64,000 bases of DNA from Dictyostelium discoideum. Taxonomy: Eukaryota. The notes under the pieces were generated by a model. The model ran no database searches, was not told where the DNA came from, and saw nothing but the letters and a program-made list of their open reading frames with translations. Numbering within the stretch: the first letter of the stretch is position 1; every line of letters begins with the position of its first letter. Shown piece by piece: positions 19,057 to 20,857 of this stretch. A program made the translations under genes and the position numbers. Location: contig CM000153.2 of the NCBI GenBank assembly GCA_000004695.1, positions 1,920,001 through 1,984,000 on the forward strand, in the 5' to 3' direction.

Positions 19057-20857
19057 TTATTTTTTTGGAATTAAAATTGGATGAGCTTCAGTATTGAAAA
19101 TATATTTATCTAATGGAATAACTGACGAAGGTTGGAATGATAAATAAAGATATTTTAAAGTTTATGACATAAAGAAACTTTCTTGAGTATCATCCAAAGA
19201 TTTTCTATCATCAACATTTTTAAGACCATTATAACCATTTTCATGTCTACAAACATCTTCAATTGCTTCAAAGATTTTCCATGACCATTCTTGATATTTA
19301 ATATCACCTACAAAAAAAAAGATATTAATATACTACTAATTTACAATTATTACTAAAATTATAATTAATTAAACATACCTGTTAAACGATATAAAATGAA
19401 TAATGATTCAACAGTTTCAGGACGTAAAATATACCAACTATATGTACCATGAACATTCCAACTAATATTACCAGAATCTGGATCGACACGGAATGATTCA
19501 GGAGCTAAACCAGATGGTGAAGTTAAATAAGTTTTTACGCAAGTTTTAGTTATCATTTCACCAACTTCCATATACTTAGCAGACTTTTTATCATCTTGAG
19601 TAATATTTGCAGCGGCAGCTAATGCAAACATACCACCAGCGAAACAAGCTAAATGTTCTTGAATGTTGGTTAGAGAGTTATGATCCATGGCTGAAAGGTA
19701 ACCATCACCTTTTGGGGAAACTTTGTACAAATGTTCAATGATAGAATCAGCAGATTCAACAAATAGACGTCTATAGATTTCGTCTTCACCATTTGTATAA
19801 ATCCACATCTTTAAGAGATATTCATAATAGGAATCACCTAAACCACCAATTGTAATAAAACTACCACAGAAACCATTTGCGTCTTGATTTACAAAAACTG
19901 GAAATAGACCTGGAATGTTTGGTTTCAATTTGGAGAGAGCATCAATCACTCTATCAGAGTATTCCTTATACTTTGGATCACCTGATATTCTTGAAAGTTC
20001 ATTAAATTCTAAAAATAATGTAGATACTTCTGATAAAATTACACAACCGCCAGTCCAACCTGGATATGTCTTTCCATGAGTTGCTAATCTAATTTGTGAT
20101 GCTGGGAATGGATTTTTAGTGTCTTTTGGGAATGCATATAATAATAAATCACCAATCTCTACTGCTTTCTCTAAATACATTTCATCATTTGTTAATCCAT
20201 ACATTGTTACATGTGATCCTAAAACTCTAATAATCGTTTCAAATACTGAAACTGCCATTCCCTTTTTTTTTTTTTTTTAAAAAAATTAAAATAAAATAAA
20301 AATTAATAAACATAAACCTTAAAACCATAAATATAAATCTAATATAAACATACAGTATTTTTAGATTGTTTTAATACATTAGCAACCCAATCTCTACCTT
20401 CTTTATATTCTTTATCTAAATTCATAATTTTAAGAGTATCTAAAGAATCAATAATTGTTAGACCAAGACCAAACCATTCTTTATGACTTTTTGTTAATGG
20501 TCTTAATTCATCTTGACCCCATGCAAATTCTTTATATTTTTCCCATGCATGTTTCATTGCTCCTCTAACTTGTTCTGATCTTTTAATATTTAATTTTTCA
20601 TTTTGATAATATACTTCATCAATTTTATTATATGGATTTCCTGTTTCAATTGTATTATTAATATTATTATTATTAATATTATTATTATTATTATTATTAT
20701 TGTTTGTATTATCTTTTTTTTGAATTACATTTTTCCATTTTTCAGGAATTGTATGAGCATCGATTTTATTTGTTCCTTCAAAACTAAAAATCGTAGATAT
20801 ACCAATAAGGAAAGCTACAATTACAATTGCAAGAAACAGTTTGATTTTTGTGTCCAT
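19057..20857 (-). pseudogene. GH47 alpha-1,2-mannosidase, tandem copy 2, carrying an in-frame premature stop in the last exon. Exons: 20857..20354, 20261..19379, 19307..(stop at 19164-19162; the intact copies end at 19057).
   Basis: The structure is the same as copy 1. In exon 3 the codon that is GAA in copies 1 and 3 (…[14 protein letters not shown]…) is TAA here, from a single change on the plus strand: tttctgacat becomes tttatgacat. This removes the C-terminal ~35 aa, including the conserved FNTEAHP segment. It could be a genuine pseudogene or truncated allele, or a sequencing error, so confidence is moderate. Confidence 0.5.

Follow-up and report, generated by a model that had tools for sequence, protein, structure and literature searches.

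Among the class I alpha-1,2-mannosidases of glycoside hydrolase family 47 (GH47), mouse Golgi mannosidase IA (1nxc) and human MAN1B1 (1fo2, 1x9d) are the known enzymes closest to the genes considered here. The catalytic acids of human ER mannosidase I (ERManI) are E330, D463 and E599 (PMC5035969), and the terminal mannose is held in the −1 subsite by R597, E599, E663, T688 and E689 (10.1101/2025.01.29.635535). The barrel of GH47 enzymes is plugged by a C-terminal β-hairpin whose conserved Thr binds the catalytic Ca2+ (10.1101/2025.01.29.635535). Single changes at conserved GH47 sites can abolish function, as illustrated by the MAN1B1 alleles E397K and R334C in recessive intellectual disability (PMC5035969).

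The locus considered here lies in a 64,000-nt window of Dictyostelium discoideum AX4 chromosome 4 (positions 1,920,001 to 1,984,000 of CM000153.2; coordinates below are those of the window) and contains three tandem GH47 genes, which we call copies A, B and C. Copy C aligns with the mouse and human structures over the whole catalytic domain; like these class I enzymes it has the equivalents of E330, D463, R597, E599, E663, T688 and E689 as well as a type II membrane-anchor layout. The other two copies depart from this pattern: copy B ends at the E663 position and copy A has an Ala at the E397 position, a Glu-to-Ala change at the residue affected in MAN1B1 E397K. In contrast to the MAN1B1 alleles, which concern a single-copy human gene of an essential pathway, the lesions of the array sit in redundant amoeba duplicates and we infer their effect.

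The array also resembles the duplicated pseudogenes of birth-and-death families, with a recent tandem duplication, a single nonsense codon, intact introns and flanks and an intact sister copy; moreover, in a related lineage the orthologue has undergone a decay of its own. It differs from the typical case in that copy B is too young to carry a neutral-evolution signature and is still listed as protein-coding in public databases. Our search of the literature returned nothing on Q54PQ0, Q54PP9, XP_638604 or EAL65245, nor on these genes under Dictyostelium GH47 mannosidase; a Dictyostelium microarray paper mentions other mannosidases only.

The GH47 array and its surroundings

Self-comparison of the window, which has a G+C content of about 22%, revealed three tandem three-exon GH47 copies on the minus strand, spaced about 3 kb apart and representing paralogous class I alpha-1,2-mannosidase genes. 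Copy A (15986-18051; exons 18051-17416, 17317-16444 and 16236-15986) has a full-length ORF of 586 aa. Copy B (19057-20857; exons 20857-20354, 20261-19379 and 19307-19057) can be read for 510 aa up to a premature stop, and copy C (22017-23832; exons 23832-23353, 23259-22377 and 22267-22017) encodes 537 aa. The original prediction had described copy B as the middle member of a three-gene tandem mannosidase array and as a GH47 gene; the self-comparison bears out the first point, and a match of copy B to Pfam PF01532 (Glyco_hydro_47, E=4.7e-135) the second. In an exact protein look-up the 510-aa translation of copy B was identical to XP_638604.1 / EAL65245.1 / Q54PQ0, an AX4 entry named 'glycoside hydrolase family 47 protein' that bears no pseudogene flag, and the product of copy C was identical to XP_638605.1 / Q54PP9. 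Our model of copy A had no exact match in the protein collection looked up.

All six introns of the array have a GTATGT donor and an AG acceptor and measure between 71 and 207 nt. Their G+C content is 7-13% in five of the six, the exception being intron 2 of copy A with 30%. This intron (16237-16443, 207 nt) holds a (GTA/GTT)n microsatellite that it has in common with the single-copy orthologues of divergent isolates. The microsatellite is gone from copies B and C, where intron 2 is 71 and 109 nt long, respectively. Copy A has the ancestral structure, with the microsatellite intron and the ancestral downstream flank, while copies B and C share the shortened intron.

Downstream of the array lies the gene for filactin (fia, Q54PQ2; about 12460-15480, minus strand) with Ist1, filamin-repeat and actin domains, motifs that agree with those published for this protein (PMC2441452). 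Upstream, from about 26500 onward on the minus strand, a FAN-like BEACH-domain gene encodes 1154 aa, and a gene model of 118 aa is located between it and copy C. Rfam returned no structured RNA within 14000-26000 and ARAGORN found no tRNA gene in the window. The ORFs on the opposite strand over the exon of interest are short and AT-rich, and we judged them to be chance ORFs.

A premature stop in the last exon of copy B

The minus strand at the site in copy B reads GAA AGT TTC TTT ATG TCA TAA ACT TTA AAA TAT, where the TAA is codon 511 (19164-19162; tttatgacat on the plus strand). This nonsense codon had been proposed in the original prediction and is confirmed by direct reading. The aligned codon is GAA in copies A and C and in the five single-copy syntenic orthologues from five other assemblies; the alignment of copy B with its sister copies and orthologues, suggested as a check, thus gave GAA in all comparators. 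The residue at this position is Glu in all 119 homologues compared.

The remainder of copy B has an intact ATG, no second stop and no frameshift. The premature stop removes 35 residues (511-545) from the product, the Glu itself included, and leaves a stranded 3′ coding remnant (19057-19161, minus strand) of 34 in-frame codons plus the original stop TAA at 19059-19057. This remnant specifies the remaining part of the last barrel helix as well as the C-terminal β-hairpin. Both the anticipated loss of some 35 C-terminal residues, with the FNTEAHP hairpin among them, and the anticipated integrity of splice sites and remaining ORF hold up: the loss is exactly 35 residues, the introns are of the GTATGT/AG type and we detected no other lesion in copy B.

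Predicted consequences for the enzyme

Copies A and C match Pfam PF01532 with 509 and 513 bits, respectively, each over profile positions 1-453 of 455. Copy B scores 451 bits over positions 1-423 of 455, the C-terminal 30 profile positions being missing. Among solved structures, the best matches are mouse Golgi mannosidase IA (1nxc, E=4e-100) and human ER mannosidase I. Residues were mapped by counting along the 1fo2/1fmi chains with an offset of +239, which lands on R597, E599, E663, T688 and E689. In the array genes E330 corresponds to the SVFE-TIIR motif, D463 to GLGD-SYY and E599 to ILRPE; these three catalytic acids are kept in all copies and are E176, D311 and E450 in copy B. E663 is the Glu of (A/S)ETLKY, the codon that has become TAA in copy B, and T688 and E689 belong to the FNTE motif, encoded in copy B by codons 535 and 536 (19092-19087) past the stop. 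The product of copy B consequently lacks the equivalents of E663 and E689 and the hairpin with T688, all of which are kept in copies A and C. The conservation of these residues is close to absolute among the 119 homologues (E663 119/119, T688 118/119, E689 119/119), and none of the 119 is without the C-terminal hairpin.

An AF2 model of copy C (pLDDT 91.1) forms an (alpha/alpha)7 barrel in which residues 498-510 make up the last helix and residues 523-525 and 531-533 the strands of the hairpin. It superimposes on 1nxc with a Foldseek TM-score of 0.93 and an rmsd of 1.7 Å, with about 38% identity in the superposition. The product of copy B ends at the equivalent of residue 502 of copy C, five residues into the last barrel helix of this model, according to which the 35 missing residues comprise most of that helix together with the C-terminal hairpin. 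Since the E663 equivalent, most of the last helix and the T688/E689 hairpin are lost, the product of copy B should be inactive. On the basis of structure and conservation, we predict a truncated protein that has no catalytic activity and that, judging from the model, would probably also be misfolded.

Copies A and C

Copy A deviates in another part of the enzyme. At the position of ERManI E397, occupied by Glu or Asp in 116 of the 119 homologues, copy A has Ala287 (GCA, 17095-17093); human E397K is a loss-of-function disease allele of MAN1B1 (PMC5035969). Just upstream of this codon, near 17117, copy A has a deletion of 9 nt (3 aa). The gene also contains a run of 54 Asn codons (17722-17883), and its private changes amount to about 6-7 nonsynonymous against one synonymous. 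Judged from these features, the enzyme encoded by copy A may be impaired or diverging, despite an intact ORF. Copy C is the sole copy of the array with every conserved active-site residue and, of the three, it alone is fully canonical.

The array in a second assembly

A second D. discoideum assembly, GCA_054883475.1, contains the same three-copy array with the same TAA (L001:9694-9696). A comparison over 12 kb shows no differences from the window other than homopolymer lengths and three substitutions. In view of so few differences, we consider the assembly to represent independent data from a near-identical strain. A de novo Nanopore and Illumina project has covered AX2-214 and nine wild isolates (Holland et al., PMC12745789), and at the array locus a divergence of 5-8% is seen in both other assemblies that bear the name D. 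discoideum. By elimination among the D. discoideum assemblies we infer that GCA_054883475.1, whose record carries no strain label, is AX2-214. A C at plus-strand position 19164 would have pointed to a sequencing error in AX4; the independent assembly has the same base as AX4.

The three substitutions that separate AX4 from the inferred AX2 genome (22266, 22003 and 21960) lie close together, in some 300 bp at the 3′ end of copy C, and at all three the inferred AX2 base is that of copy A. Either a gene-conversion tract that differs between the laboratory strains or, in one of the genomes, an error of assembly or polishing could account for this cluster.

The annotation of the second assembly contains a 526-aa model of copy B, KAM9942947.1 (L001:8001-9801), in which the stop is skipped by means of a 57-nt intron. 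In the window this corresponds to a GT..AG stretch at 19122-19178 (minus strand), whose excision gives exactly the C-terminus of KAM9942947.1. We judged this intron to be a prediction artefact. Its G+C content of 0.26 is exon-like, compared with 0.07-0.13 in five of the six introns of the array, its donor is GTTTCT as opposed to GTATGT in all six, and in copies A and C the identical sequence belongs to the coding region.

Age of the lesion and origin of the array

Syntenic loci were located via the downstream neighbour filactin (Q54PQ2) in two divergent D. discoideum isolates, D. citrinum, D. dimigraforme, D. firmibasis and two 'D. cf. discoideum' isolates. In each of these relatives a lone GH47 gene sits between the FAN-like BEACH gene and filactin. 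It is intact in the group-4 relatives other than 'D. cf. discoideum', namely the two divergent D. discoideum isolates (L003:7454-9464 and L004:7438-9466), D. citrinum (L005:7511-9536), D. dimigraforme (L007:7296-9303) and D. firmibasis (L008:5928-8434). Sister species and the D. discoideum isolates from Central America have one copy at the locus. As all relatives examined have a single gene, the triplication is specific to the AX4/AX2 lineage. A large protein search for intact or truncated alleles of copy B in other samples, made with the 100-aa C-terminus of copy B in which the Glu had been restored, returned no near-identical sequence but only fragments of at most 67% identity from unrelated organisms.

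Synonymous distances are 0.034-0.043 among the three copies and 0.054-0.079 between them and the single-copy genes of the divergent D. discoideum isolates. Different sites of the gene support different groupings, some uniting A with C and others B with C or A with B, and this conflict suggests that interlocus gene conversion may have occurred among the copies. In exons 2 and 3 (1,131 nt) the changes private to copy B are a Glu-to-Lys, an Asn-to-Asp and the stop, and none is synonymous; the Lys (AAA) and the Asp (GAT) are codons 46 and 262 of exon 2, respectively. The nonsense mutation must be recent, given just two other private substitutions and no other lesion, in agreement with the earlier view of copy B as very young. 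Compared with copy A, the 34 codons following the stop show one synonymous change, too few events to test for selection. Their integrity fits a recent event, and fits equally well their use through readthrough or homogenization by gene conversion; with an event so recent, these codons are uninformative as to selection or readthrough.

The two 'D. cf. discoideum' isolates, which belong to cryptic species, present a different picture. In one (GCA_054859235.1, L006:8453-9575) the single syntenic orthologue is an old pseudogene that has lost the first ~556 nt of its CDS and contains several 1-bp frameshifts and internal deletions, with FNTEAHP changed to FNTKAHP. In the other (GCA_054859205.1, L002) exon 1 is inverted (9313-9837, minus strand) and adjoins, upstream, the intact exons 2 and 3 (9920-11212, plus strand). 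Either the gene is broken by a real inversion of ~0.5 kb, or the region is locally misassembled; in the public annotation this orthologue is a 350-aa fragment. In D. firmibasis the matches listed include at least four paralogues of the GH47 subfamily of the array, which makes redundancy plausible. An orthologue degraded in one isolate and disrupted in another, together with paralogue redundancy, indicates that the array locus is dispensable and has a fast turnover, so that a tolerated null copy would be unremarkable.

Discussion

The data lead us to propose that copy B is very probably a very young non-processed duplicate pseudogene, or a null allele, that is tolerated within a triplication specific to the AX4/AX2 lineage. 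It is a tandem paralogue of copy C, has kept both introns with canonical sites and contains one nonsense codon. A single G-to-T change (GAA to TAA) would have struck codon 511 of the middle gene of the triplicate. The product, if made, would keep the N-terminal membrane anchor and the equivalents of E330, D463 and E599, and would be devoid of the E663 equivalent, the hairpin that plugs the barrel, the Ca2+-binding Thr (T688) and the Glu corresponding to E689. Loss of this copy would presumably be tolerated with copy C and other GH47 paralogues supplying the activity.

How widespread the lesion is depends on its origin. AX2 and AX3/AX4 are separate derivations from NC4. The TAA has been seen solely in AX4 and in the inferred AX2 genome, both NC4-derived, and the wild isolates compared are all single-copy, none having the three-copy array. 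As both carriers go back to one isolate, the TAA could be a private or laboratory-stock allele and not a species-level pseudogene. The stronger proposition, that it originated while NC4-derived stocks were propagated in the laboratory and does not occur in natural populations, appears unlikely to us. The separate derivation of AX2 and AX3/AX4 places the TAA in the NC4 stock before axenic selection, although an origin in early NC4 culture would be compatible with this. The mutation would predate the AX2/AX3 split and would already have been present in NC4.

We have also considered whether the 510-aa form of copy B is retained for a non-catalytic role, for example as a lectin-like or dominant-negative pseudoenzyme, with copies A and B diverging rather than decaying. 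Copy B has an intact promoter region, start codon and membrane anchor and two intact introns, and the ratio of about 6-7 nonsynonymous changes to one synonymous in copy A is explained equally well by positive selection or by relaxed constraint. However, removal of most of a barrel helix and of the plug hairpin argues against a stable fold, and all 119 homologues have this region. The private changes of copy B are too few to reveal selection, and degradation of the orthologue in one cryptic-species isolate and its disruption in another mark the locus as dispensable. A retained function is in our opinion very unlikely. We give as little credence to an extended version of this idea, in which the truncated B and the E397-variant A would be expressed as non-catalytic lectin-like or regulatory GH47 proteins since the triplication, and interlocus gene conversion, frequent enough for AX2 and AX4 to differ in it, would be reshuffling the copies.

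Even less probable is the continued production of a full-length protein from copy B, by readthrough of the stop codon or by splicing of the 57-nt segment. The 34 codons beyond the stop are undamaged, and an in-frame GT..AG pair across the stop was picked up by a gene predictor; nevertheless, undamaged downstream codons would be expected anyway after so recent an event. In eukaryotic termination TAA followed by A is an efficient context and not a known leaky one. The stop of copy B is in precisely this context, and its readthrough is unlikely. As for splicing, the exon-like G+C content (0.26) and the GTTTCT donor are accompanied by a length below that of any real intron of the array (71-207 nt), and this stretch serves constitutively as coding sequence in copies A and C. 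Excision would moreover remove 19 residues, including the equivalent of the invariant E663 and most of the last helix. Finally, it is barely conceivable that the 2005 AX4 reference contains a miscalled or misassembled base at the stop and that copy B is actually intact. Errors can arise where tandem paralogues of 98% identity differ by a single base, but we reject sequencing error because TAA occupies the same codon in an independent long-read and short-read de novo assembly, which is no copy of AX4 since it differs at other sites, and because mis-polishing between paralogues would yield GAA and erase a stop unique to copy B.

A young duplicate pseudogene or null allele, as we propose for copy B, is ordinary and will not surprise specialists. 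The added value of the analysis lies in the correction of the annotation and in the description of a three-copy array, specific to the AX4/AX2 lineage, with one canonical copy. Q54PQ0/XP_638604.1 is listed as an ordinary GH47 protein yet is without indispensable residues, and the AX2 model KAM9942947.1 conceals the stop behind a false intron. For Dictyostelium N-glycan processing, the functional class I mannosidases to be counted at this locus are one canonical gene, copy C, and not three. Within the species complex the locus provides a compact case of gene birth and death, in which the gene is single-copy in some lineages, degraded in the cryptic-species isolates and triplicated in AX4/AX2, with one copy truncated and one altered.
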